DNA of 11,466 bases from a virus. Below the pieces are notes generated by a model. That model was not told the DNA's origin and ran no database searches. It saw nothing but the letters and a program-made list of their open reading frames with translations. The stretch lies in UHGV virus genome UHGV-0306748; one strand, 5' to 3'. Made by a program: the position numbers and the translations under genes. Shown here one piece after another: positions 817 to 11,466 of this stretch. Position 1 is the first letter of the stretch, and the number at the start of each line of letters is the position of its first letter.

Positions 817-974
817 TTGTGAAGGCTGAAAAGTAAGAATTAGTGTTACGAGTTATGAATCTGTTTATTGAGTAGGTTGATTAAAGCTGCGTGGTTGCTG
901 GTTTTTTTGTAATGCATTTTTTCATTAGGTACACCCTTGTGTACACCGTAAAGTGATGTGCTTAAAGGCTGCGT

Positions 975-1933: not shown

Positions 1934-2293
1934 ATGAGAATGACCAGCCGCAAAAAAGAGATACTCAGCTACTTTGAACCTGATAGCCTCGATTGGGTTA
2001 CTGGTGAGATTGGTGCGCCGCCGTTCGATGTGTCGGGTGTGGCCTACCTGCTTCATGGCATGGTGTCGTTCGATAAGCGTCACCAGCTCGAATCAACCCG
2101 GCGCACACTGGAAAGCATGGTTGCTGGTGGGCTGCTTGAGCGGGTGACAGTGTATGAATCGCGCCAGATACGGCGCGGCGGTGAGACTAACGCAACGGTC
2201 GTGCGCTACGGTTTACCCGGTCAGTGCGCTGTTATGCGCGATACTGGCGGCGCTGATAACGCAATATCAGGTGAATACATGCGGGTCAGTTAA
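1934..2293 (+). CDS. Hypothetical protein, 119 aa, possibly winged-helix-like
   Basis: Only sizeable plus-strand ORF that does not lie inside another gene. AAGGAA sits 10 nt upstream of the ATG. The segment LESMVAGGLLERVTVYE resembles a wHTH recognition helix and wing. Its 3' end overlaps the convergent 2286..2828 gene by 8 nt. No family recognised. Confidence 0.45.
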   Translation: MRMTSRKKEILSYFEPDSLDWVTGEIGAPPFDVSGVAYLLHGMVSFDKRHQLESTRRTLESMVAGGLLERVTVYESRQIRRGGETNATVVRYGLPGQCAVMRDTGGADNAISGEYMRVS

Positions 2294-2828
2294 TAGCCTG
2301 CAATCTGTCGTTGATGCGGCTCAGGTCGTAAACCCGGCGTTCAATATCCAGCATCAGGAAATTGTGGATCTCGGCCTGCTCAGGATTATCAGACTCTCTG
2401 GCCTGTAATAGCAATTCATTGTAACCATGCAAGCCGCCTGAGTTTTCCGCCGGGGTGGTGCCTTTCCCACGCAGGCAGCTAATAGGCTGATTGCTCGTAT
2501 CGTGTGTTTGCTTCTCCAGCACAATGACGCAATCCCACCAGTTGCCAAAGTCATACGTGTAAACCAGCTTGTCACCATCATTCTGGAGCGCTGCCCATAG
2601 TGGTGTGATTGCCGCATTACCCATGCTTTCATCCTCACCCCATACGCGATACTCGCTACCGGGATCACCTTTACGCCCTTTCTCGAACATATACAGGTGT
2701 TCGTCATTCCAGCCAAAAGCCAACTGGATCACCGCGTGAAGTTCACTAAAGGGGATTTGCTCTGGAACCAGCACACGCCGCCATATAGGTGGTTTGCTGT
2801 CTCGGATGGTTATCTTTAGCTGGTACAT
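2286..2828 (-). CDS. pRiA4b ORF-3-like family protein, 180 aa
   Basis: N-terminus MYQLKITIRDSKPPIWRRVLVP...LHAVIQLAFGWNDEHLYMF matches the signature I recall for this family (YQLK-[IV]-x-L...PP-[IV]-WRR...GW..HL..F). ATG start at 2828. Confidence 0.7.
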   Translation of the reverse strand: MYQLKITIRDSKPPIWRRVLVPEQIPFSELHAVIQLAFGWNDEHLYMFEKGRKGDPGSEYRVWGEDESMGNAAITPLWAALQNDGDKLVYTYDFGNWWDCVIVLEKQTHDTSNQPISCLRGKGTTPAENSGGLHGYNELLLQARESDNPEQAEIHNFLMLDIERRVYDLSRINDRLQAIN

Positions 2829-2948
2829 GCAAATCCTGAATAAATGCGAATCGGAAGGATAACGATACTGACGTACTCACAATTCTGTAAAGGTGAATAA
2901 AGGAAATTTGCTTAATACGCATAAGTTACATGCGGAATAATCCCGTAT

Positions 2949-3134
2949 CTACCTGCGCGGCGCTGGCTTCTTCCACTGGTAGGCAGGTGCTCGCATCATT
3001 TCGCGGAACCTGTCGCGCCGGGCTATATCGGCATTAACTGAGCGTTCTATCTCCCGTTGATCTGCCTGTGTAAGCTGGTGGCCTCCGTGCTCAAGTTTGG
3101 CGATGGTCAATAAGGCTATTTCGCGTGGTGTCAT
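2949..3134 (-). CDS. Hypothetical small protein, 61 aa
   Basis: ORF with ATG start and a GAGGG-like SD 8 nt upstream. Basic C-terminus. No family recognised. Confidence 0.4.
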   Translation of the reverse strand: MTPREIALLTIAKLEHGGHQLTQADQREIERSVNADIARRDRFREMMRAPAYQWKKPAPRR

Positions 3135-3762: not shown

Positions 3763-4434
3763 TTATTCCACCAGCAAAAATGGCGTTGCCCGGTCTATGA
3801 CGTTGATGCCAATTAACGAGCTAACATTTCGACCATTCACAATGCTATCCCGTTCAAGCAAATGCGCTATTTTTTCTACTTCATACCAGTATTGAGCCAT
3901 GAGGGCTTTGGTCTTTTCAACGAGTTTAGAAAGTATTAACTCCCTGTTAATTCGCTTATCTGTAGCGCAGATTAAATCGAGCATGTCATTTACGTTAGCC
4001 ATGTCATAGCGATGAGGTAGCGAATACTTTTTGTTGAAAATATCGTTGTTTTCGTAAAGGGCTTCGCTTACTGGTCCGGCGAGGGATACAAAAGCAGCCT
4101 TTTTTGCATCGCGCTTTATACCATCCGCATAGTAACGTATGAAAGGGATAACTTTACCATTCTGCCCAACTACACCAGATTTACTATCCCGCAAACGCCC
4201 GAGATCGTGGCTGTGAATTATGCTGTGTTTAACAACGCCCAAACACTTGGCCTCATGTACATGTTCGCCAGCAACGTAACCGTATTCATCCATAACGGCG
4301 ATAACCTGTATATCTAAGCGAATAAGCCATGCAGCTACTGCATGTCCCGCTTCGTGGAATGCTACACATCGTTTACCATCACCTATCCAGTTATAGAACA
4401 TTTCATGCTCATATATCTGGTGAATGGCGCCCAT
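3763..4434 (-). CDS. Standalone FtsH-like (peptidase M41) zinc-metallopeptidase domain protein, 223 aa; no AAA+ or transmembrane region
   Basis: HEAGH zinc-binding motif at nt 4342..4356 (confirmed on the DNA) in the FtsH-like context AFHEAGHAVAAWL. A downstream MANVNDM segment resembles the FtsH GASNDI region that holds the third zinc ligand. C-terminal helices resemble the FtsH M41 C-terminus. Its ATG overlaps the upstream gene's stop (TAATG). Confidence 0.7.
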   Translation of the reverse strand: MGAIHQIYEHEMFYNWIGDGKRCVAFHEAGHAVAAWLIRLDIQVIAVMDEYGYVAGEHVHEAKCLGVVKHSIIHSHDLGRLRDSKSGVVGQNGKVIPFIRYYADGIKRDAKKAAFVSLAGPVSEALYENNDIFNKKYSLPHRYDMANVNDMLDLICATDKRINRELILSKLVEKTKALMAQYWYEVEKIAHLLERDSIVNGRNVSSLIGINVIDRATPFLLVE

Positions 4435-4607
4435 TACGCGCCCTCGCTTGCCAGTGAGGCCAGCGCCTTATCCATTAATCCCCGAGCAATTTCGTGGATC
4501 GTTGGCGCAACTCCTACCTCTGATTTTTTACGCTGCTCCTCCTGAATTTTCTTTATCGCTTCCATTTGCTTCTCACTTATCAATACCGGCTTTACTGAAA
4601 TAGCCAT
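4434..4607 (-). CDS. Small ribbon-helix-helix-like DNA-binding protein, 57 aa from ATG at 4607
   Basis: MAISVKPVLISEKQMEAIKKIQEEQRKKSEVGVAPTIHEIARGLMDKALASLASEGA has a strand-helix-turn-helix layout typical of RHH (CopG/Arc-like) proteins. AAGGGG SD 4-5 nt before the ATG. The track's TTG start at 4634 is probably an over-extension. Translationally coupled to the peptidase gene. Confidence 0.5.
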   Translation of the reverse strand: MAISVKPVLISEKQMEAIKKIQEEQRKKSEVGVAPTIHEIARGLMDKALASLASEGA

Positions 4608-4639
4608 AACGCCCCTTAGAACTGTATAAAACAACAGTT

Positions 4640-4700
4640 ATTATAGTTTCACAAATAGCAATATTTATCACCGTAATTGCAAAATATGAAACAAATAGCA
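4640..4700 (-). promoter_or_regulatory. Candidate promoter/operator region for the RHH-peptidase pair
   Basis: Minus-strand TATAAT at 4645..4640, about 33 nt upstream of the ATG. Two 10-bp direct repeats ACAAATAGCA (4651-4660 and 4691-4700) lie 40 bp apart. No convincing -35 hexamer at 17-bp spacing. Confidence 0.3.
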
Positions 4701-4701
4701 C

Positions 4702-4734
4702 AAAAAAATGCCGCCGCTCAGTAGCTGGTGGCAT
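4702..4734 (-). terminator. Candidate rho-independent terminator for the alpha operon
   Basis: 8-bp stem (4708-4715 / 4727-4734; 7 of 8 pairs) with an 11-nt loop, followed on the minus strand by six T (complement of 4702-4707). It lies between the iteron cluster and the RHH promoter. Confidence 0.4.
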
Positions 4735-4809
4735 CGTTCTGTGTGTCAAGTTTTGACAAGTTTCGTTTTAAGCTCACCCCCCCATAGAATCTTTTTGGGG
4801 GTGTAATAT

Positions 4810-5057
4810 CCCTACCAATCCCTACTAACTGGCTCATGCCACGAATGGCAAGGCTTTCAGACTGGTAGGCATTCAATTTTGTTGCCCTACATAACCCTAC
4901 TTATCCCTACTAAATCACTTCAACGGCATTTTACTGCCTGTTTTATTTGGTAGGGATATGTAGGGATAAGTAGGGATAAAAATATATATCCCTACCTAGT
5001 TTAAAGCCTTGCTACGTCTGGCCTCGTCTCGTTTTTAGTAGGGCAGTAGGGATAAGT
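4810..5057. repeat. Iteron cluster; putative replication origin for the alpha-like primase-helicase
   Basis: About 11 copies of a GTAGGG(ATA) / (TAT)CCCTAC core in both orientations. Three CCCTAC copies begin at 4885, 4895 and 4905 and three TAGGGATA copies at 4951, 4961 and 4971 (10-bp phasing). Others are at 4812, 4822, 4992, 5040 and 5049. An AT-rich stretch AAAAATATATAT sits at 4978-4989. Confidence 0.6.
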
Positions 5058-5072
5058 GCCGCCGTAAAAGTT

Positions 5073-7514
5073 TCAATCATCACTCTGCCCGCTCTCCACA
5101 CCGTAAGCGCGTGGCATGAACTCCTCAGCCTTCTCGTTATAGCCAACGTTGGTTTGCGCTCTGCCGTTAATGCTTCTCGTCAGGTAGCTGGCTCGGTACT
5201 CTTTTGCTGCTGATTTTATGGCGCGTGAAAACTTATTGACGGAAAGCGGTTTACCCAAACCGTGATACTCCATAAACGCCAGATAAAGATGATAAAGATA
5301 CGTCCTCGGCTCTGGCTGGCCTGCCCATGTACCTCCGCCCATCATCATGCCTTTGGGTTCGTTCATGAAAAAAAGCGCCGCACACATATCGACAACCGGA
5401 TCCGTGCCGCGTTTAACCTCTAGCGCCTCCTGCGAATCGCGCTGCTCTAGTAATAGTGCCTTTGCTTTGTTCTGGTCGGCAAAGGTGGTTAGCAGGTGGC
5501 GGATAATCACCGGGATTTCTCGCCTGATTTTTGCGGTTAAATCCGGGTCTTTGTCTGCGTCTGATACCGGGTTATTAAACGGGAATATCACGCGGCGGCG
5601 GGCAATGCCCCCGTTTCGCTCCGTGAATGTCATCGGCTCGTTATTGGTTGCCATAACAACGGCATTTATCACGGTTGTGAACTGCTTTTCATATTTCCCA
5701 TCAATCTCTACCGGATCGCCGCCCGTAATGGCTTTAATCCCCGCACCCTCTCCAACATAGCGGGTCTGGTCAGGCATAATAATCAGGCTTTTTCCTACGA
5801 ACTGCGCCCGTCCCCGTGCGGTGTCCAGCGTCATCATGCTACCGCTGGCGGTGTTGTGTTCACCTGCCAGCGTGGTTGCTATGCTGCTGAATACGGATTT
5901 CCCACTGCCGCCCTCGCCAGTTATCTCAATGAATAGCTGCCAGTCGTGACGCTTCGCCAGCACCATAAACAAGGCTGCTTTGATACGCTCGGCCTTATGA
6001 TGGTCGCCAGCCGTTGCATGATTCAGCCAACGGGTAAAATTGGGGGCGCTGGTGGTAATATTTTCCCCCGGCGCTGGCGGGGTGTAGGTGATCCCATTGT
6101 GGTTCATCAGCCAGTTACCCGGCGAATGGGCGGAAAACGTCTGCGTAGCGAGGTCATAAACGCCGTTATCAAAACCAATCAAATCCCCGCTCCGCTCACC
6201 AATTACCGGTATTTGCAGCTTCATGGTTGCGACAACCGATTTAATCCCCTTTTCGGTGTAGTGGGCTTCGTGCTCGTCGAAAATTGCCACCATAACCCTT
6301 TCTAATTCGCTGTCTGGTAGCTTCACCCATACGCCAGATTCGTAGCAGTAAACAGTGCCACTATCAGGGTTAACCGCCAACATATCCCATCGAGATGAAA
6401 GCAACCGCGCTTTCTGGCTGGCTGCCATTTGTGCAATATCTCCGACATCGGCTTTACGGCGGGATTTACCGCCCTCAATGGCTTGCAATCGCGGTTTCAC
6501 GGCTTCCCCTTGAATCTGGTACATCGAATCGTTAAACGCAGCCGTAGCGACTTCCAGCCCGTTTTGCTGGCGGTAGTCGTCCCAGTCGGCTTTGTAGTCT
6601 GTCGGCGGCAGCGCCACCCAGCCAGCCACGGATAAGGCGGCTTTCTCTGCGGCATCTTTGCCCGTGTTCGCCTGGTCGTCCTGCTGGTGGTCGTTATCTG
6701 CGGCAATGATAATCTGCGTGGCTGGATATATCCGGCGCATCACTTCGGCAACGGGTAGCAGGTTGCCCGCGTCAATTGCTGCCACTGCCAGCGCGTCCGG
6801 GCGCATCAGGTGAACTGAAAGGGCCGTCGCCAGCCCCTCGGCAATTAAAACGCTCTGCGGCGATTCTGGCGCGTTTACGGCGTGATATGCCCCGCGCTTT
6901 GCTGAACCTGTCAGGAGTCGTTTATCTCCCTGCGGCGTGATGGTCTGCGCCGCCACTACTGCGCCGGATTCATCCACCAGCTCCAGCAATAACGAACCAT
7001 CCGGCATAACCGGATAGTTAAACCCGGTCAGCCCTTTTGATTGCAGGTAATCAGATTCGCCCTGTGTGGCACTCTGGCGCATTCCGGCATACAGATGGGC
7101 AAACGTAGCCCTTCGCTGCTCTGCGTCCTCTGCTGCCTGTTTCTGGCGCTCCTGCTCACGCTGCTGGCGGTCAGCTTCCAGTTGCTCTCTTCTATGGCTC
7201 GCTGCCGCCGGGTCGGTTTGCGCTGCCCGGTAATCAATACCCAGCACGTCAGCGGCAAGCTGTGCCGCCTCCGTGGTGTCGCAGTTGTTAACCCGCTTGA
7301 TTAAATCCAGCCCGTCACCAGCGCCACACTGGTTGCAGATAAAGCTACCGCGCCCGTTGTCGTCGAATCTGAAACGGTCTTTTCCACCACATGCAGGGCA
7401 TGGAGAATGGCGGCGCGATGAATCAGGCACGTCGATAGACAATCCAGCCAGCACATAAGGCCAGCGCCCTGCTGCGGCGCTGGTCACTTCGCGGATAAGG
7501 TCGATATTACGCAT
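5073..7514 (-). CDS. P4 alpha-like primase-helicase, about 813 aa from ATG at 7514
   Basis: N-terminal zinc-binding motif CPACGGKDRFRFDD...CNQCGAGDG, a Toprim-like acidic segment IIIAADNDHQQDD, and a C-terminal Walker A GEGGSGKS (nt about 5895-5918). AGGAGG SD 5 nt before the ATG at 7514, which overlaps the upstream stop. The track's 7547 start is likely over-extended. Confidence 0.85.
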   Translation of the reverse strand: MRNIDLIREVTSAAAGRWPYVLAGLSIDVPDSSRRHSPCPACGGKDRFRFDDNGRGSFICNQCGAGDGLDLIKRVNNCDTTEAAQLAADVLGIDYRAAQTDPAAASHRREQLEADRQQREQERQKQAAEDAEQRRATFAHLYAGMRQSATQGESDYLQSKGLTGFNYPVMPDGSLLLELVDESGAVVAAQTITPQGDKRLLTGSAKRGAYHAVNAPESPQSVLIAEGLATALSVHLMRPDALAVAAIDAGNLLPVAEVMRRIYPATQIIIAADNDHQQDDQANTGKDAAEKAALSVAGWVALPPTDYKADWDDYRQQNGLEVATAAFNDSMYQIQGEAVKPRLQAIEGGKSRRKADVGDIAQMAASQKARLLSSRWDMLAVNPDSGTVYCYESGVWVKLPDSELERVMVAIFDEHEAHYTEKGIKSVVATMKLQIPVIGERSGDLIGFDNGVYDLATQTFSAHSPGNWLMNHNGITYTPPAPGENITTSAPNFTRWLNHATAGDHHKAERIKAALFMVLAKRHDWQLFIEITGEGGSGKSVFSSIATTLAGEHNTASGSMMTLDTARGRAQFVGKSLIIMPDQTRYVGEGAGIKAITGGDPVEIDGKYEKQFTTVINAVVMATNNEPMTFTERNGGIARRRVIFPFNNPVSDADKDPDLTAKIRREIPVIIRHLLTTFADQNKAKALLLEQRDSQEALEVKRGTDPVVDMCAALFFMNEPKGMMMGGGTWAGQPEPRTYLYHLYLAFMEYHGLGKPLSVNKFSRAIKSAAKEYRASYLTRSINGRAQTNVGYNEKAEEFMPRAYGVESGQSDD

Positions 7515-7848
7515 GGTTGCCTCCTGCCACGGTCGCGCCCATATCATTAATCATGCTTTGCCATATCTCGCGCCCGACGTCAGTCAATCCGTCCTTAGTG
7601 ACGCAACGATCAAGAAGCTCGATCCCCACGGTTTCCCACTGCGGGTAGAACACTTTCATGGCTGCCAGTGTGTAGCTATCGATCAGGCTGCGAACGCCTT
7701 TTACTCCATTGACGATTTCCACACGGACGGCGAGGCCGTCCGCATCAACCATGAAATAGTCCCCGCCGCTGGTGGAGGTAATGTGGTTATACAGTGCCGA
7801 CGCATACTTATTCGCCAGCGCATTCAGTCGGAAATTTTTAGTAATCAT
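7507..7848 (-). CDS. Hypothetical protein, 113 aa, alpha-operon member
   Basis: ATG at 7848 preceded by a GAGGGGG SD; tightly packed with flanking genes. No family recognised. Confidence 0.55.
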   Translation of the reverse strand: MITKNFRLNALANKYASALYNHITSTSGGDYFMVDADGLAVRVEIVNGVKGVRSLIDSYTLAAMKVFYPQWETVGIELLDRCVTKDGLTDVGREIWQSMINDMGATVAGGNHA

Positions 7849-7857
7849 GTCGCCCCC

Positions 7858-8484
7858 TCAGTGCGCCAGCGGCATTTCAGGCCAGCCGTTTTCATCCAGT
7901 TCAGCTATAAAGCTGTTGTGAAGTTCAGCAAGCGTTTCACGCCCGAACGGGGTCAACTCGCCGCGCTCCGTATCCAGCATGGCCTGATAAAACACAATGG
8001 CTTTTTCCGTACCCTGCTCAACGCCGTAGCGCTCAATCAGTGCGCCCTCGATGTTGTTCGCCATCGCAAGACGTTCCGCGAACGGATAAACCGGAAGTGC
8101 CGCTTTGCCATTGGAGTAAATCGCTACCTGCGATGAAGTGCCGTCAGACTCAGTTACCGTGGTTGTGCCGTTTTCGCGCTTCATCTCAGAAATGAACGTC
8201 GCAGCAATCAGCCAGCGCCACATAGTGACGTTATGCTGCGCGGTGAAGTCGAACCAGCCACGCGCCCCGCCATCAGCAACGGCAAAATGAATGGCGTATC
8301 CGATATCTGGCTTATCGTCGTACTCTCCGGCGTCAAGGCCGTTCACGGCGCTCTCGTAGCTGATAAGAGCAACCTGCTCATATCCCCCGGCATCATTGCG
8401 GGTCATGATATTGACGCCGTGCGGTGTGGCTTCGGCGTGTAATAAGTCGGCATTTCCCGATTTAATGGTCGGTGCGTTGCTCAT
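7858..8484 (-). CDS. Hypothetical protein, 208 aa, alpha-operon member
   Basis: ATG at 8484 overlaps the upstream stop (ATGA). Acidic protein; no family recognised. Confidence 0.55.
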   Translation of the reverse strand: MSNAPTIKSGNADLLHAEATPHGVNIMTRNDAGGYEQVALISYESAVNGLDAGEYDDKPDIGYAIHFAVADGGARGWFDFTAQHNVTMWRWLIAATFISEMKRENGTTTVTESDGTSSQVAIYSNGKAALPVYPFAERLAMANNIEGALIERYGVEQGTEKAIVFYQAMLDTERGELTPFGRETLAELHNSFIAELDENGWPEMPLAH

Positions 8485-8744
8485 GCGCTGCCCTCCGCAT
8501 CAATTCTGGCTATATCGACAATCGTCAGGACTTTACTCAGCCAGCAATACGCGATGGCTGCTTGCTCAACTTCGAGGAGTGGTAATAAATCGGTCATAAC
8601 GTGAGCCAGCCCATTGCGGGCGCGGGTCATGCGTTCTGCTGTTCGGTCTGCCAGCGTAAAATCATCCGGGTATGATTCTTTGCGAGATAGCATCGCTTCG
8701 GCTTCCAGCTCTGCCGGGTGGCGGTAGATGGTTTTTATGTTCAT
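8481..8744 (-). CDS. Hypothetical protein, 87 aa
   Basis: ATG at 8744 overlaps the upstream stop (ATGA). No family recognised. Confidence 0.5.
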   Translation of the reverse strand: MNIKTIYRHPAELEAEAMLSRKESYPDDFTLADRTAERMTRARNGLAHVMTDLLPLLEVEQAAIAYCWLSKVLTIVDIARIDAEGSA

Positions 8745-8920
8745 GCTGCCACCTCACGAATGCGGGTAATCTGGATGTGGGAAAGGCGTTCATTTCTGGC
8801 CTGATTTAGCGCCTCAGCTTTGGCGCTGATCGCGCTGCGGGCATCAACGATATAAACGAACTCGACTAATTCGCCGCTCCGGGCGGTGGCGCATCCTGCA
8901 ACACGGAAGTAATTAAGCAT
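8741..8920 (-). CDS. Hypothetical small protein, about 59 aa from ATG at 8920
   Basis: The track ORF begins at a TTG (8950). The first ATG is at 8920, overlapping the stop of the 8913.. gene by 8 nt. No family recognised. Confidence 0.4.
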   Translation of the reverse strand: MLNYFRVAGCATARSGELVEFVYIVDARSAISAKAEALNQARNERLSHIQITRIREVAA

Positions 8921-9104
8921 GTGCGCCCCCTGTGCGAATACGTCCGGCAAAAAAGCAAACGTGATCCCGCGCCAGAATGCGGCGGGCTTCCTGCTCAGTC
9001 TCTGCGGCGATATGGTGAATTTTGGCGGTAATTGTCGGCATATCGCGGCGAACTGCTGCGATAATCCAGATAAATTGCGGTTTTTGGGTAGGGGTAGTAG
9101 CCAT
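8913..9104 (-). CDS. Icd-like (host cell division inhibitor-like) small protein, 63 aa, nested in-frame at the 3' end of the upstream ORF
   Basis: ATG at 9104 preceded by AGGAGG with an 8-nt spacer. MATTPTQKPQFIWIIAAVRRD...RRILARDHVCFFAGRIRTGG resembles Icd-like proteins of P4-like elements as I recall them. Confidence 0.5.
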   Translation of the reverse strand: MATTPTQKPQFIWIIAAVRRDMPTITAKIHHIAAETEQEARRILARDHVCFFAGRIRTGGAHA

Positions 9105-9701
9105 TATGGCAGCCTCCTGTAACTGGGATTTATTCCCACCACCGGAAACGCCAATTTCACTGGTGGTGAGCTGAACAGGGTTGGCGTAACCGGCGTTACA
9201 GGAAACCGGCGCGGATCGCTCCGCCCCCATCCAGCCCACCATTACTTTTTGAGCAATATGGGCTATAGCCATATCGCTGGGAAAGAGGTGTGCAGATGCG
9301 AGGACACAAAAAAAGACGCTCGGCGCGTCATGTGTCGCCTGTAACATTATCAGGACGCCAATCCCGGCACCAGATTTTGCTGGTGCGCTATAACCATAAA
9401 CCGGGTTGGCGATAGTCGGCAAGCCCTTTTTTATGGACTCCGAATACTCACCTTCTCGCGTAACGACCCCTAATAAATCTTCCAGCGCACGCGTATTTGT
9501 CGCGAAAGTCGATGTGGAACGGTTCACAACGGTAGCAATCCAGTTCATACCACCAGCCAGCAGGGGGAATTTATTCCCCACAATCAGCTTTTTAGAGGTG
9601 ATTATTTCTTGGTTTAAAATGTCATCATTTGTCGTCATTCCCCGTGCGTGGATGTCAGGTTTTGTGAGGTTCAGGCTAAGTTTTGCTAAGTCATTAACCA
9701 T
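8913..9701 (-). CDS. Ash-family-like protein; start uncertain; reads in-frame through the Icd-like segment
   Basis: The track ORF starts at a GTG (9872) inside the DUF4222-like gene. The first ATGs after that gene's stop are at 9701 and 9638. The segment KSGAGIGV...PVSCNAGYANPVQLTTSEIGVSGGGNKSQ resembles the P4 Ash family as I recall it. No stop separates it from the Icd-like region. Confidence 0.4.
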   Translation of the reverse strand: MVNDLAKLSLNLTKPDIHARGMTTNDDILNQEIITSKKLIVGNKFPLLAGGMNWIATVVNRSTSTFATNTRALEDLLGVVTREGEYSESIKKGLPTIANPVYGYSAPAKSGAGIGVLIMLQATHDAPSVFFCVLASAHLFPSDMAIAHIAQKVMVGWMGAERSAPVSCNAGYANPVQLTTSEIGVSGGGNKSQLQEAAIMATTPTQKPQFIWIIAAVRRDMPTITAKIHHIAAETEQEARRILARDHVCFFAGRIRTGGAHA

Positions 9702-9810
9702 AACAATTGATAACAGGCAGCCGTTCGCGACCTTTGGTTTTATAAGGTTGTAAGGGTTAACATTTGTTAACAGGCTAGCCAGATTAAAGGCTTCTTTCTG
9801 GGCGGCAGGT

Positions 9811-9993
9811 TCATTCAGTATCACGGCGCACCTCCACGAACTCATTAACGAATCTCTCCAAAGGCTGAACACATGGCGACTGATAGCCCTCGCGGTAAAA
9901 GGTCACTCGGTTATGCTCGACGCGCTGTACGGTCACTACAGCCCCGTGCGAATCCTTGTAACGGCTTCCCGGCATCGGATTATGGTTACGCAT
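9811..9993 (-). CDS. DUF4222-like small protein, 60 aa
   Basis: ATG at 9993 with a GGAGG SD at 6 nt; overlaps the upstream stop by 8 nt. The pattern ...VTFYREGYQSPCVQPLERFVNEFVEV resembles small proteins common in P4-like elements. Confidence 0.5.
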   Translation of the reverse strand: MRNHNPMPGSRYKDSHGAVVTVQRVEHNRVTFYREGYQSPCVQPLERFVNEFVEVRRDTE

Positions 9994-10819
9994 GGTTTAC
10001 CTCCAGACGTTTAGTGAGCCAGCGTTGCGACAGGCGGGTGAGTTCTCCTTTGCGCTGCTCATATTCCATGCCCATATCAATTAGCGTGATATTGGTGCTT
10101 TCCAGATAGGAGAGGTGTTCAAGCTGTGCTGCGTTCATATGGTCGCGAGGTTCGCCAGTAATGCCATTTGCCTGCGCCCACTGCTTCGCCGTCATGCCAC
10201 CCAGCACGATACGGGCGATCATGTTGCTCTCGTTGCTGTAGTGGCGCTGCTGCGTCGTTTTACCCAGCTCGGCACGGGCCATATTCAGCGCATCGCACAT
10301 TGGCTTAAAGTTGTTTGCGGCACTGATACGGGCTTTTAGCTGGCGACGATAGCGGGCGGCGATTTCAGGCACGCTACGCTGTAATTCTTCCTCGCACTGG
10401 ATGAAATAACGGCGGATAGCGCGGCCCTGTTCGGTGCGTTCGACCATCGCCAGTTCTTTCGCCATTCCGACACTTAACAGATAGTCTTTGCCGGGTCTGC
10501 CAGACTGCTTAATCTTGCTGTAAGCCGCGCCATTCGGGCTTTTCCCCAGATTTGGGGAAATAGTTTTATGGACTGAGTAATCGTGCCCAATGGTGAAGTC
10601 ATATTCAGAGATGCGATCAGTGATCCATGTAGAGAAGTCTTTTCCCACGCCCAACGCTTTGTGTAACGCTTTTGCGCTAACAATATTGGTTTCACGCCCA
10701 CCGATATGACCAGGAATAACCGGGACAATTGCGGCAAATTCATTACCGTTAATTGTGCCCTGATAGGCGTTCAGATGAGGGGCGGCCTCAGAAATTAATC
10801 TGCTTTTTTCGATGTTCAT
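9986..10819 (-). CDS. Phage antirepressor-like protein (AntA/KilAC-type), 277 aa
   Basis: The N-terminal region (AIVPVIPGHIGGRETNIVSAKALHKALGVGKDFSTWITDRI) and a central region (GMAKELAMVERTEQGRAIRRYFIQCEEEL) resemble Ant/KilAC antirepressor domains. GGAG SD 7 nt before the ATG at 10819. Confidence 0.55.
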   Translation of the reverse strand: MNIEKSRLISEAAPHLNAYQGTINGNEFAAIVPVIPGHIGGRETNIVSAKALHKALGVGKDFSTWITDRISEYDFTIGHDYSVHKTISPNLGKSPNGAAYSKIKQSGRPGKDYLLSVGMAKELAMVERTEQGRAIRRYFIQCEEELQRSVPEIAARYRRQLKARISAANNFKPMCDALNMARAELGKTTQQRHYSNESNMIARIVLGGMTAKQWAQANGITGEPRDHMNAAQLEHLSYLESTNITLIDMGMEYEQRKGELTRLSQRWLTKRLEVNHA

Positions 10820-10831
10820 TTTCAGTCTCCG

Positions 10832-11263
10832 TTAGGCGGCGGTGAGATTGTCCGGGTATAGATTGAGAATGTCGGCAATTTCAGGCTGAGAAAGTCCCTG
10901 ATAGCCGCCAGCGTCGGCGTTATGGTTCACAAGCCGAATAACTTTTAGAACGTCACCGCGCCCGGTAAAGCGATAGCGTAAATGTGACCCTATCCCGTCG
11001 GGGTTCTTTTCGTCTATACGCTCAAGCTGAATATCAAGCCTGCGCTCTAACTCGCTGGCGTAGTTCCTTCCAGACGAAAGGCGGCAATAACGCAGAATAT
11101 CGTTTTCTGTCCATCCCTCTATACCAGTACGCAGCATATAGACGCGGGCGCGGTGTTTCTTTGGGGTACGCCTAGGTACTTGTACCGGGCTGGTGGTCGG
11201 CGTAATATCAGACGTGCGAATATCTGAGTTAGCCGCCTGTAATGGGCGGTTTTTCTTTTTCAT
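10832..11263 (-). CDS. Hypothetical basic protein, about 143 aa from ATG at 11263
   Basis: The track ORF starts at a TTG (11266). The adjacent ATG at 11263 overlaps the AlpA stop (TGATG). No family recognised. Confidence 0.5.
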   Translation of the reverse strand: MKKKNRPLQAANSDIRTSDITPTTSPVQVPRRTPKKHRARVYMLRTGIEGWTENDILRYCRLSSGRNYASELERRLDIQLERIDEKNPDGIGSHLRYRFTGRGDVLKVIRLVNHNADAGGYQGLSQPEIADILNLYPDNLTAA

Positions 11264-11466
11264 CAAGCCACCTTTCCCCGACGTTCTGCCAGCCAGTTGT
11301 TAATCTCTACCGCATCAAAGGCGGTAATCTTCTCGCCCAGCTTTACCGGACGTGGTAGTGAACCGTTTCTTACTTTACGGTCGATGGTGGATACACTAAC
11401 GCCCAGCAATTCAGCCAGGCGAAAGCGGCGGATGTAACCTGTGTTGGGGATGTTGTCTGTAGCCAT
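11263..11466 (-). CDS. alpA: AlpA-family (Vis/excisionase-like) HTH regulator, 67 aa; start coincides with the window edge and may be truncated
   Basis: RFRLAELLGVSVSTIDRKVRNGSLPRPVKLGEKITAFDAVEINNWL fits the AlpA phage-regulator HTH pattern. It is the first gene of the minus-strand operon. Confidence 0.65.
   Translation of the reverse strand: MATDNIPNTGYIRRFRLAELLGVSVSTIDRKVRNGSLPRPVKLGEKITAFDAVEINNWLAERRGKVA

Follow-up and report, generated by a model that had tools for sequence, protein, structure and literature searches.

What kind of mobile element carries a P4-type regulatory and replication module without the P4 late genes sid, delta, and psu? This question is raised by the virus genome UHGV-0306748, an 11,466-nt stretch of DNA (here referred to as the window) in which the module runs right to left and which stops exactly at the ATG of alpA. 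A preliminary description had considered a phage-inducible chromosomal island (PICI)-like element or a defective P4-type island that had lost or never had the late genes or, alternatively, late genes situated past the integrase. We consider it likely that the element is a PICI-type satellite of the EcCIMP1-like lineage, which combines P4-type RNA immunity with a P4-type primase, never had P4 late genes, and depends on a helper.

Proteins encoded in the window were scanned with Pfam and PHROG, and NCBIfam, PADLOC, Rfam, and sequence searches of the PDB were used as well. The loci used for comparison include the best relative (L001, 98% identity), Escherichia coli K-12 (L002), EcCIMP1 (L003), P4 (L005; NC_001609), EcCICFT073 (L007), and the related islands L004, L008, L009, and L010. 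Coordinates of all features are collected in Table 1.

Late genes and kinship of the island

The P4 record has alpha at 4636–6969 (minus strand), with t-alpha, crr, attP, and int coming next, and it has sid, delta, and psu at 9583–11460 (plus strand), divergent from and upstream of the ORF88(Vis)-cI-epsilon-orf151-orf106-alpha operon. The statement in the preliminary description that the P4 late genes follow alpha/ori was therefore wrong, and this mistaken view of the P4 gene order is corrected here. SatelliteFinder gives the conserved order of P4-like elements as psu-delta-sid, then alpA, epsilon, and alpha, and in a survey of P4-like elements, alpha comes last, with no conserved genes behind it (PMC8628076). 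Because the late genes of P4 lie upstream of its Vis operon, the place to search for them is past the right edge of the window and not downstream of alpha.

Six-frame tblastn searches with P4 Sid, Delta, and Psu, in which P4 served as a positive control, gave no match in the window, the whole island of L001, EcCIMP1, L004, EcCICFT073, L008, or L009. Sid also lacks a Pfam or PHROG match among the window proteins, and PHROG scans of all proteins revealed no Sid, Delta, or Psu. The reported absence of the three genes thus holds across the window in all six frames, and four related islands at thrW lack late genes as well. Extending the analysis past the right edge, as had been proposed, was possible in relatives (L001 and L004), where the integrase (in L001, with att repeats) is indeed present and late genes are not. 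The L001 island lies between yicC and dinD, and to the right of its alpA, there is one 316-aa ORF, a tyrosine integrase gene, and yicC; L004 has the same arrangement, with one ORF of ~300 aa. The slot equivalent to that of the P4 late genes is, in relatives, occupied by one unrelated ORF between alpA and int, and yicC follows directly beyond int, so the suggestion that late genes lie past the integrase finds no support there. The int-proximal ORFs of three relatives are co-directional with alpA and have no match in Pfam, PHROG, NCBIfam, or PADLOC. Judging from these relatives, the int-proximal end of the island (int and one ORF) is the only part that lies outside the window.

The window is ~98% identical to E. 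coli chromosomes, and at least 80% of it is covered in 22 complete genomes. Its gene order is AlpA, orf144, AntA, DUF4222, the RNA cassette, an icd-like ORF, orf69/orf87/orf208/orf113, primase, iteron origin, a ribbon-helix-helix (RHH) protein, peptidase, PerC, orf61, pRiA4b-ORF3, orf119, a dinD paralog, and the host dinD. Apart from the convergent orf119 (plus strand), every substantial ORF is encoded on the minus strand, and no tRNA genes were found in the window. Every gene named in the preliminary description was recovered at roughly the position given there (ORF, Pfam, and PHROG scans), and the P4-type character of the module was confirmed, the primase, AlpA, and three Rfam matches being shared with P4.

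EcCIMP1 has homologs of 13 of the 18 window proteins, in the same order, with identities of 79% (orf144), 92% (AntA), 97% (orf113), 81% (RHH), 93.5% (PerC), 100% (orf61), 98% (pRiA4b), and 97% (orf119); an EcCIMP1-like layout is also seen in L008, L009, and L010. EcCIMP1 is a PICI of E. coli MP1 for which the P22-like phage vB_EcoP_Kapi1 acts as the inducing and transducing helper and whose excision needs alpA (PMC11773190). Compared with EcCIMP1 orthologs, the window genes are under purifying selection (dN/dS 0.09–0.31), which indicates that they are maintained and are not debris. In line with the definition of PICIs by Fillol-Salom et al. 2018, the element has int (seen in relatives), AlpA, and a replication module, co-directional and in the conserved order, and neither phage structural nor lysis genes were detected among the window proteins (Pfam and PHROG); in L001, the distance between att copies is ~12.6 kb. 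The absence of sid, delta, and psu is expected if the element is a PICI-type satellite. Of the possibilities raised earlier, that of a PICI-like island that never had late genes is favored, given that the full island is present in the 98% identical relative and encodes no Sid, Delta, or Psu in any frame. The yicC-inserted island thus adds one more EcCIMP1-like PICI to a known lineage, and its missing late genes, as the problem was posed, are ordinary.

The features shared with EcCIMP1 comprise int, alpA, orf143/144, AntA, DUF4222, the C4/isrK RNAs with the icd-like ORF, small ORFs, primase, an RHH gene with an identical LexA-like box, a payload, and the PerC block. The two elements differ in att site (thrW tRNA-Thr in EcCIMP1, the yicC 3' end here), integrase, AlpA (34% identity), and the specificity loops of the antisense RNA. 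Only the N-terminal half of the primase is shared, the C-terminal part being of the DUF927 type in EcCIMP1 and of the D5/DUF5906 type here; moreover, EcCIMP1 carries P22-type ejection proteins where the island has an M41 protease, and it lacks the dinD paralog and orf69. EcCICFT073 (PMC6092414; PMC6739421) resembles the island in its co-directional int and alpA, DUF4222, the helicase half of Pri-Rep (55%), an iteron origin downstream of it, PerC after the origin, the lack of tail and lysis genes, and a size of ~12–15 kb. In contrast to the island, for which none of these were found, EcCICFT073 carries capsid, decoration, and RppA genes and a lambda-type cos; a C4/isrK cassette, which EcCIMP1 does have, is not detectable in it even at E ≤ 1.

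P4 (PMC8628076; PMC10085698) and the island share Vis/AlpA, a P_LE-like promoter, the SeqA leader, CI RNA, SeqC over the ribosome-binding site (RBS) of a small ORF, alpha, alpha-binding repeats directly downstream, a tyrosine integrase (for the island, in relatives), and a similar size. Of the seven P4 core components listed by de Sousa et al., the island has Alpha and AlpA/Vis, as well as the integrase judging from L001 and L004, and not Sid, Delta, Psu, or Epsilon. The island differs from P4 in having three extra genes between alpA and the immunity cassette and seven or eight genes after alpha, where P4-like elements have none; a P2-type cos was not found in it, and it has one iteron cluster with another motif, whereas P4 has bipartite ori/crr octamers.

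Table 1. Features of the window, from right to left
Feature	Position	Strand	Remarks
alpA, 67 aa, AlpA/Vis-type helix-turn-helix (HTH)	11263–11466	−	Pfam Phage_AlpA 1.9e-08; 34% identical to P4 ORF88/Vis; first operon gene
orf144	10832–11266	−	Conserved backbone gene, 79% identical in EcCIMP1; no Pfam/PHROG/NCBIfam match
AntA/AntB-type antirepressor, 277 aa	9986–10819	−	Pfam AntA 1.7e-21; PHROG anti-repressor Ant 2.6e-37; 92% identical in EcCIMP1
DUF4222 protein, 60 aa	9811–9993	−	Pfam DUF4222 1.4e-22; also in EcCICFT073 and EcCIMP1
Candidate internal promoter	9393–9423	−	CTTGCC, 19-nt spacer, TATGGT; aligns column for column with P4 just upstream of seqA and with EcCIMP1
SeqA/IsrK-like leader	9309–9399	−	isrK 9386–9309, 75 bits (gathering threshold, GA, 50); c4-a1b1 9399–9347, 43.8 bits (below GA 46.7)
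C4/CI-family antisense immunity RNA	9159–9246	−	Rfam RF01695, full length, 76.9 bits (GA 45); P4 CI RNA 74.9
SeqC-like downstream target	9113–9155	−	b2 ATTGGCGT 9148–9155; a2 GTTACAGG 9116–9123; overlaps AGGAGG Shine-Dalgarno (SD) 9113–9118 of icd-like ORF
icd/kil-like ORF, 63 aa, start 9104	8913–9104	−	Last 63 codons of 319-aa "Ash/Icd" ORF (8913–9872)
Small backbone ORFs	7507–8950	−	orf69 8741–8950, orf87 8481–8744, orf208 7858–8484, orf113 7507–7848; PHROG unknown-function families
P4-family primase-helicase, 824 aa	5073–7547	−	Zn ribbon, Toprim, D5_N/DUF5906, Pox_D5; 38% identical to P4 alpha over 97% of length, E = 3e-145
Replication origin (predicted)	4806–5057		GTAGGGATA/TATCCCTAC iterons, two oppositely oriented sets flanking AT-rich core, directly downstream of primase gene
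LexA-box-like palindrome	4620–4639		AACTGTATAAAACAACAGTT; between TATAAT and SD/ATG of RHH gene
Putative RHH protein, 57 aa	4434–4607	−	ATG 4607, ORF open from TTG 4634; conserved first gene of post-origin operon
Stand-alone FtsH-type M41 zinc-protease domain (predicted), 223 aa	3763–4434	−	HEAGH; variable payload; GC 0.435
PerC-family regulator, 93 aa	3268–3549	−	Pfam PerC 9.2e-29; 93.5% identical in EcCIMP1; first gene of conserved distal block
Distal block	1934–3134		orf61 2949–3134 (−), pRiA4b ORF-3 family 2286–2828 (−), orf119 1934–2293 (+); pRiA4b: PDB 2i1s; dN/dS 0.09–0.21
Island dinD paralog, 274 aa	975–1799	−	85% identical to host DinD; no upstream LexA box; PADLOC PDC-S13; yicC-specific integration cassette
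Distal island end	853–947		att remnant TTATGAATCTG 853–863 (copy of yicC 3' end); arm-type repeats GGTACACC/GTGTACACC 928–947
Host chromosome, outside island	1–694	−	5' part of native dinD 1–631; known LexA box 675–694

The RNA immunity cassette

The window has the same three Rfam matches as P4, in the same order: C4/CI RNA, the isrK/SeqA-like leader, and the a1b1 targets. IsrK is a structural homolog of the P4 SeqA RNA, and the CI RNA of P4 pairs with two complementary sites, thereby terminating transcription ahead of the replication genes (PMC4825925). In the window, the leader contains the upstream targets b1 (ATTGGCGT, 9355–9362) and a1 (GTTACAGG, 9338–9345) and, according to a terminator scan, ends in an intrinsic terminator (9315–9329) with a T-run. 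The antisense RNA has the loops a' (CCUGUAAC, 9195–9202) and b' (ACGCCAA, 9181–9187), which are complementary to ATTGGCGT...GTTACAGG twice, upstream at 9362–9338 and downstream at 9155–9116.

In an alignment of the window (9113–9399) with P4 (L005 8355–8750) and EcCIMP1 (L003 24535–24890), the promoter-like hexamers, terminator, antisense RNA, and targets are collinear. Both loops covary with both targets across the three elements, and the changes are compensatory; the a-element pairs are GTTACAGG/CCTGTAAC in the window, TTCACAGG/CCTGTGAA in P4, and GTACAAGG/CCTTGTAC in EcCIMP1. This comparative evidence argues strongly for a functional RNA switch and for heteroimmunity among the elements, and the covariation would imply distinct immunity specificities among co-resident satellites. 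The hexamers at 9393–9423 may act as a promoter, as they align in P4 with the stretch directly ahead of seqA, which we take to be the position of P_LE in P4. A generic promoter scan yielded fewer matches than in shuffled sequences and was uninformative.

The immI locus of P1 (c4-icd-ant) and isrK-orf45-anrP of Gifsy-1 are similar in that an RNA controls a small ORF (icd/orf45) coupled to downstream genes and in their association with an antirepressor. They differ from the island, where the RNA cassette is preceded by the antirepressor gene and the gated genes would be replication genes, as in P4.

The Pfam "Ash" match of the 319-aa ORF (residues 160–264, nt ~9080–9395) sits on the RNA cassette. 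In EcCIMP1, an Icd-like gene of 64 aa is annotated separately by PGAP, and the 319-aa ORF is probably overannotated, only its last 63 codons being a gene. The obsolete cI ORF of P4 matches Phage_ASH, and P4 epsilon matches PF25738; an equation of Ash with epsilon was therefore rejected, Phage_ASH corresponding to the obsolete P4 cI ORF over the CI RNA. Neither a tblastn match to P4 epsilon nor a PF25738 match was found for any island protein, and with the Ash match located on the RNA locus, the island thus lacks epsilon. Much of the Ash protein family may correspond to an RNA locus in translation. That the widespread "Ash family/Icd-like" annotation of these islands falls on a conserved antisense-RNA cassette matters wherever satellites are detected with "Ash/epsilon" as the protein marker, and markers that equate the two are worth checking.

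Replication genes and the post-origin operon

The primase is a mosaic, with residues 11–359 being 71% identical to the TOPRIM/DUF927 protein of EcCIMP1 and residues 371–811 being 55% identical to the Pri-Rep of EcCICFT073. Its helicase half is closer to this Pri-Rep than to P4 alpha, and the mosaic suggests domain shuffling among satellite replicases. The iterons noted earlier in the 438-bp gap behind the primase gene (4635–5072; GC 0.41) are real: nine exact or near-exact copies of GTAGGGWTA occur within 4807–5054, in both orientations and many of them 10 bp apart, with 2.9 copies expected in the whole window. E. coli PICI origins lie downstream of pri-rep and have two iteron sets around an AT-rich region (PMC6092414), and iteron sets with an AT-rich core are likewise found behind the primase gene here. 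The origin octamer of P4, TGTTCACC, was considered as the iteron and rejected, as it occurs in a single copy that lies inside the primase gene.

Only two CTGT-N8-ACAG sites occur in the window (0.09 expected), namely the host dinD box and a site at 4622–4637, ahead of the RHH gene. Using a position weight matrix derived from the validated LexA boxes in PMC3009722, with dinD excluded (training range 14.3–28.5 bits, with polB at 14.3), the 4620–4639 site scored 19.3 bits, the 95th percentile of shuffled-window maxima being 14.1. The site has one core difference from the polB box, and its 16-nt core is identical in five of five relatives (L001 16628–16647, L003 18841–18860, L004 10086–10105, L008 11163–11182, and L009 11170–11189) whatever the payload, L009 differing only at the last flanking base. 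On these grounds, the palindrome is a candidate LexA site. LexA-like boxes with one core mismatch were also seen between int and alpA in three island types (L001 22949–22968, 19.5 bits; L007 7289–7308, 16.5–18.8 bits; L008 19574–19593, 12.9–15.0 bits).

An SOS-boxed operon directly after the satellite origin is reminiscent of operon I of the SaPIs, which lies after the SaPI origin and is LexA-controlled according to Ubeda 2007 as cited in PMC6092414; in both cases, expression would coincide with helper-prophage induction. The two are unlike in that there is no sequence relationship, the contents of the island operon (an RHH-like protein and an M41 protease or ejection proteins) include no known packaging genes, and the LexA site of the island is a predicted one.

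The preliminary description had listed an RHH-peptidase pair, and the peptidase half of this label held up better than the RHH half. The 57-aa protein has no profile match, and a single-sequence model, with an extended N terminus and two helices, is compatible with an RHH fold. A 10-bp direct repeat (TGCTATTTGT, coding strand) at 4651–4660 and 4691–4700, 40 bp apart and upstream of the RHH gene, is a candidate RHH operator. The 223-aa protein belongs to a family restricted to Enterobacterales (28 clusters) in which HEAGH is invariant, and a PDB sequence search gave a weak match to AFG3L2 over ~190 residues. Its AlphaFold model is of moderate quality (pLDDT 60.6, pTM 0.64), and the ~42 top Foldseek matches are all FtsH-family protease domains, with TM ~0.5 and weak E-values. 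These matches support the prediction that the protein is an M41 protease domain without an AAA+ module.

The cargo past the iterons had been suspected of being AT-rich and separately acquired. GC content calculated per gene is indeed low for the RHH and peptidase pair (0.442) and for the island dinD (0.462), compared with 0.536 for the alpha operon, whereas the stretch from PerC to orf119 averages 0.525; PerC, orf61, pRiA4b-ORF3, and orf119 (GC 0.51–0.57, GC3 0.58–0.63) are indistinguishable from the alpha operon. Segments were also counted in 5,426 complete E. coli genomes. At a coverage of at least 80%, the primase and origin are found in 75 genomes and the RHH-peptidase pair in 50; the RHH gene with ~130 bp upstream is found in about 524, and the PerC-orf61-pRiA4b-orf119 block in 366, at 95–99% identity. 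Since the last two numbers are far above those for the primase and the peptidase, the RHH gene and the PerC block are conserved backbone, and separate acquisition of everything past the iterons is contradicted. Only the slot between the RHH gene and the PerC block and the dinD end are variable. The islands L008, L009, and EcCIMP1 at thrW have kept the RHH gene and have other primase types.

In these thrW relatives (L003 13481–18649, L008 6627–10971, and L009 7407–10978), P22-type DNA-ejection/injection genes and one for a DUF2824 protein follow the RHH gene. Such a payload is unusual in a satellite that is known to use a P22-like helper. The SOS-boxed payload slot behind the origin is a place to screen for helper-interference or anti-phage genes.

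In the literature searched, we found no description of a covarying P4-type RNA immunity cassette in EcCIMP1-like PICIs, of an "Ash" protein family overlying an RNA cassette, or of a conserved SOS box ahead of a swappable post-origin payload. These three undescribed features are modest additions. A bolder idea, which we put forward tentatively and regard as rather doubtful, is that EcCIMP1-like elements form a distinct hybrid satellite lineage and are not "incomplete PICIs." Such a lineage would combine a mutually heteroimmune P4-type CI/C4 RNA switch, a PICI-style body, and a LexA-gated, RHH-headed post-origin operon, the interchangeable payload of which would be a helper-exploitation or interference module in place of sid-delta-psu, Rpp, or TerS. 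The regulatory scheme proposed below is a concrete model for the thousands of elements classed as "Type C PICIs," which are now set aside as possibly defective.

Proposed mode of life, rival explanations, and flanking genes

From the genes and RNA elements found, we infer the following functional steps, including helper dependence. During quiescence, the internal promoter would produce a leader with the SeqA/IsrK-like element that stops at the intrinsic terminator. The C4/CI RNA derived from this leader would pair through its two loops with the sites on either side, the downstream one covering the RBS of the icd-like ORF, and, by analogy with P4 and P1 immI, this pairing would block the downstream small ORFs and the primase. 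Upon induction, a helper phage, possibly together with the SOS response, would raise AlpA levels and thus activate the operon; AlpA and Int would excise the island, and AntA may inactivate a resident repressor. The primase-helicase would then work on the iteron origin right behind its own gene. The operon headed by the RHH-like protein, presumably gated by LexA, would express the swappable payload, an FtsH-like protease here and P22-type ejection proteins in EcCIMP1-type relatives. Packaging would depend on the helper and proceed without cos, TerS, Rpp, or Sid of the island's own.

Packaging determinants were looked for in several ways. In two sequence searches of the PDB, for which the unknown island proteins were all concatenated, no Rpp was matched, and no TerS, head, or packaging PHROG was matched by the island proteins, save for a weak HTH match on AlpA. 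For lambda cosN, the window contains just two matches with two mismatches, both within coding sequence, and the 19-nt cohesive end of P2/P4 is absent from the window at up to five mismatches. With no Rpp, TerS, capsid gene, or cos, the element falls into the SatelliteFinder class "Type C PICI," to which the authors of the EcCIMP1 study assign their own element (PMC11773190).

Several points weigh against the identification as a helper-dependent PICI-type satellite. One is this failure to find a packaging determinant (lambda cosN, P2/P4 cos, Rpp, or TerS) in the island, and the SatelliteFinder authors regard Type C PICIs as possibly defective or not satellites. The transfer frequency of EcCIMP1 is itself low (PMC11773190), and induction of alpA in EcCICFT073 has been reported to be SOS-independent. 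The palindrome at 4620–4639 could be the operator of the RHH protein itself instead of a LexA site. Finally, the distal att repeat of the window (TTATGAATCTG, 853–863) is 8–9 bp shorter than that of L001 (12841–12868), which may mean that excision is impaired or may reflect att-block drift as reported for yicC PICIs.

The lack of packaging functions also invites the explanation that the element is no phage satellite at all. It could be an integrative element with excision and replication of its own, one moved by conjugation like the mobilizable genomic islands (MGIs) at the yicC 3' end, or a fixed regulatory or defense island; we consider this unlikely. It would fit the use of the yicC 3' end by MGIs (PMC5397120), the presence among the cargo of a DinD paralog from a PADLOC defense-candidate family and of a PerC-type regulator, and the warning by the SatelliteFinder authors that Type C PICIs may represent different kinds of elements. 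However, the annotated products include no relaxase or MobI and no oriT-type or conjugation gene, the closest characterized relative, EcCIMP1, is phage-induced and phage-transduced, and the antirepressor, Vis/AlpA, CI-RNA immunity, and primase-origin unit constitute the P4/PICI toolkit. Relatives, moreover, carry P22-type ejection genes similar to those of the helper.

We regard it as quite improbable that the element is a defective P4-like satellite that has lost sid-delta-psu and a P2-type cos by deletion. Homology of the operon to that of P4 (alpha 38%, Vis 34%, and the collinear CI/SeqA cassette) speaks for such a descent, as does the variable slot with one unrelated ORF in the int-alpA interval, the P4-like late-gene position. 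Against it, no late-gene remnants occur in six frames in any island examined, seven or eight genes lie behind a primase gene whose counterpart alpha is the last gene before att in P4-like elements, and neither a P2/P4 cos nor epsilon is present. The single iteron cluster is PICI-style and lacks the P4 octamer, the helicase half is nearer to the PICI Pri-Rep (55%) than to P4 alpha, and the genes are under purifying selection in a family with hundreds of members. That the window is part of an ordinary, complete P4-like prophage, with its late genes just past the right edge, is extremely unlikely. The window does stop at the alpA start codon, on the side where P4 late genes would be, but in L001 and L004, this flank consists of a ~300-aa ORF without similarity to Sid, Psu, or Delta, int, and yicC; the thrW copies also lack late genes, and the genes after alpha and the missing cos are already un-P4-like.

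The borders of the PICI-type island follow from a comparison of K-12, in which the yicC-dinD spacer is an uninterrupted 220 bp, with both L001 junctions. The distal junction has the complete K-12 spacer together with a degenerate repeat of the final ~20 bp of yicC (TTACTCAATATT-GAATCTG), and the true yicC end (TTACTCGATATTCTGAATCTG) adjoins int. GTACACC-type repeats, found just inside both island ends, are probably Int arm sites. The preliminary description had placed dinD genes after the cargo; there are two, and the comparison with K-12 shows that only the inner one is island-borne, whereas the outer one, which has a known LexA box, belongs to the host.

The yicC gene is already documented as a PICI integration site, and its 3' end is also the att site of MGIs mobilized by SXT/R391 integrative and conjugative elements and A/C plasmids (PMC5397120). 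The K-12 yicC-dinD junction (L002 3380–3820) is intact in 3,933 of 5,424 E. coli genomes and split in ~27%, so this is a busy integration hotspot; the island occurs in only 22 genomes, and a related yicC-type integrase occurs in ~347. L010 has the backbone, including this primase and peptidase (~97% identity), at thrW, with different int, alpA, and int-proximal ORF and without the island dinD. One backbone is thus found at two att sites, yicC and thrW, with int/alpA cassettes swapped. The homology breakpoints with L010, at ~1890 and ~11273, bracket alpA, the ORF, int, attP, and dinD, which form one uninterrupted block once the island is an excised circle; this indicates that the dinD paralog travels with the yicC-specific integration cassette.

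This paralog lands beside the host dinD, generating tandem dinD genes. Its origin by capture of the flanking gene in an aberrant excision is possible; a relic att at ~1853–1872 (ACTCAATATCTCACATCCTG) shows a resemblance by eye only, and, in its simplest form, such a capture is disfavored by the arm-type repeats that lie beyond dinD. In PADLOC, DinD is the only protein with a defense match (candidate family PDC-S13), none being found for RHH, peptidase, PerC, orf61, pRiA4b, orf119, orf208, or the int-proximal ORF.

Among the upstream operon genes, AlpA is presumed, by analogy with its role in E. coli PICIs (PMC6092414, PMC11773190), to be the master activator and excision factor; the weak HTH match mentioned above is the sole head or packaging PHROG match among the island proteins. 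An assignment of orf144 as RppA was rejected: the protein has the length of RppA and shows no similarity to the 144-aa ORF of EcCICFT073, which is itself called RppA by length and position only. The small ORFs are 60–97% identical in EcCIMP1, with the exception of orf69. A dN/dS of 0.14 was obtained for orf113, and for orf87 and orf208, dS is saturated or could not be computed; orf69 and orf87 have no match to NCBIfam, Pfam, or a functionally annotated PHROG. The 98% identical relative lacks orf208 (L001 ~19856–19911 versus window 7858–8484), which indicates that this gene is dispensable for maintenance; L010 and EcCIMP1 retain it.

As for the distal block, the PerC homolog of EcCIMP1 silences LEE1 (PMC11773190). 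In one genome (hit H84; NZ_CM151354.1, 3707944–3710895), a Panacea-domain gene, of a toxin-antitoxin-associated type, lies inside the PerC-pRiA4b block, which hints at a further cargo slot.

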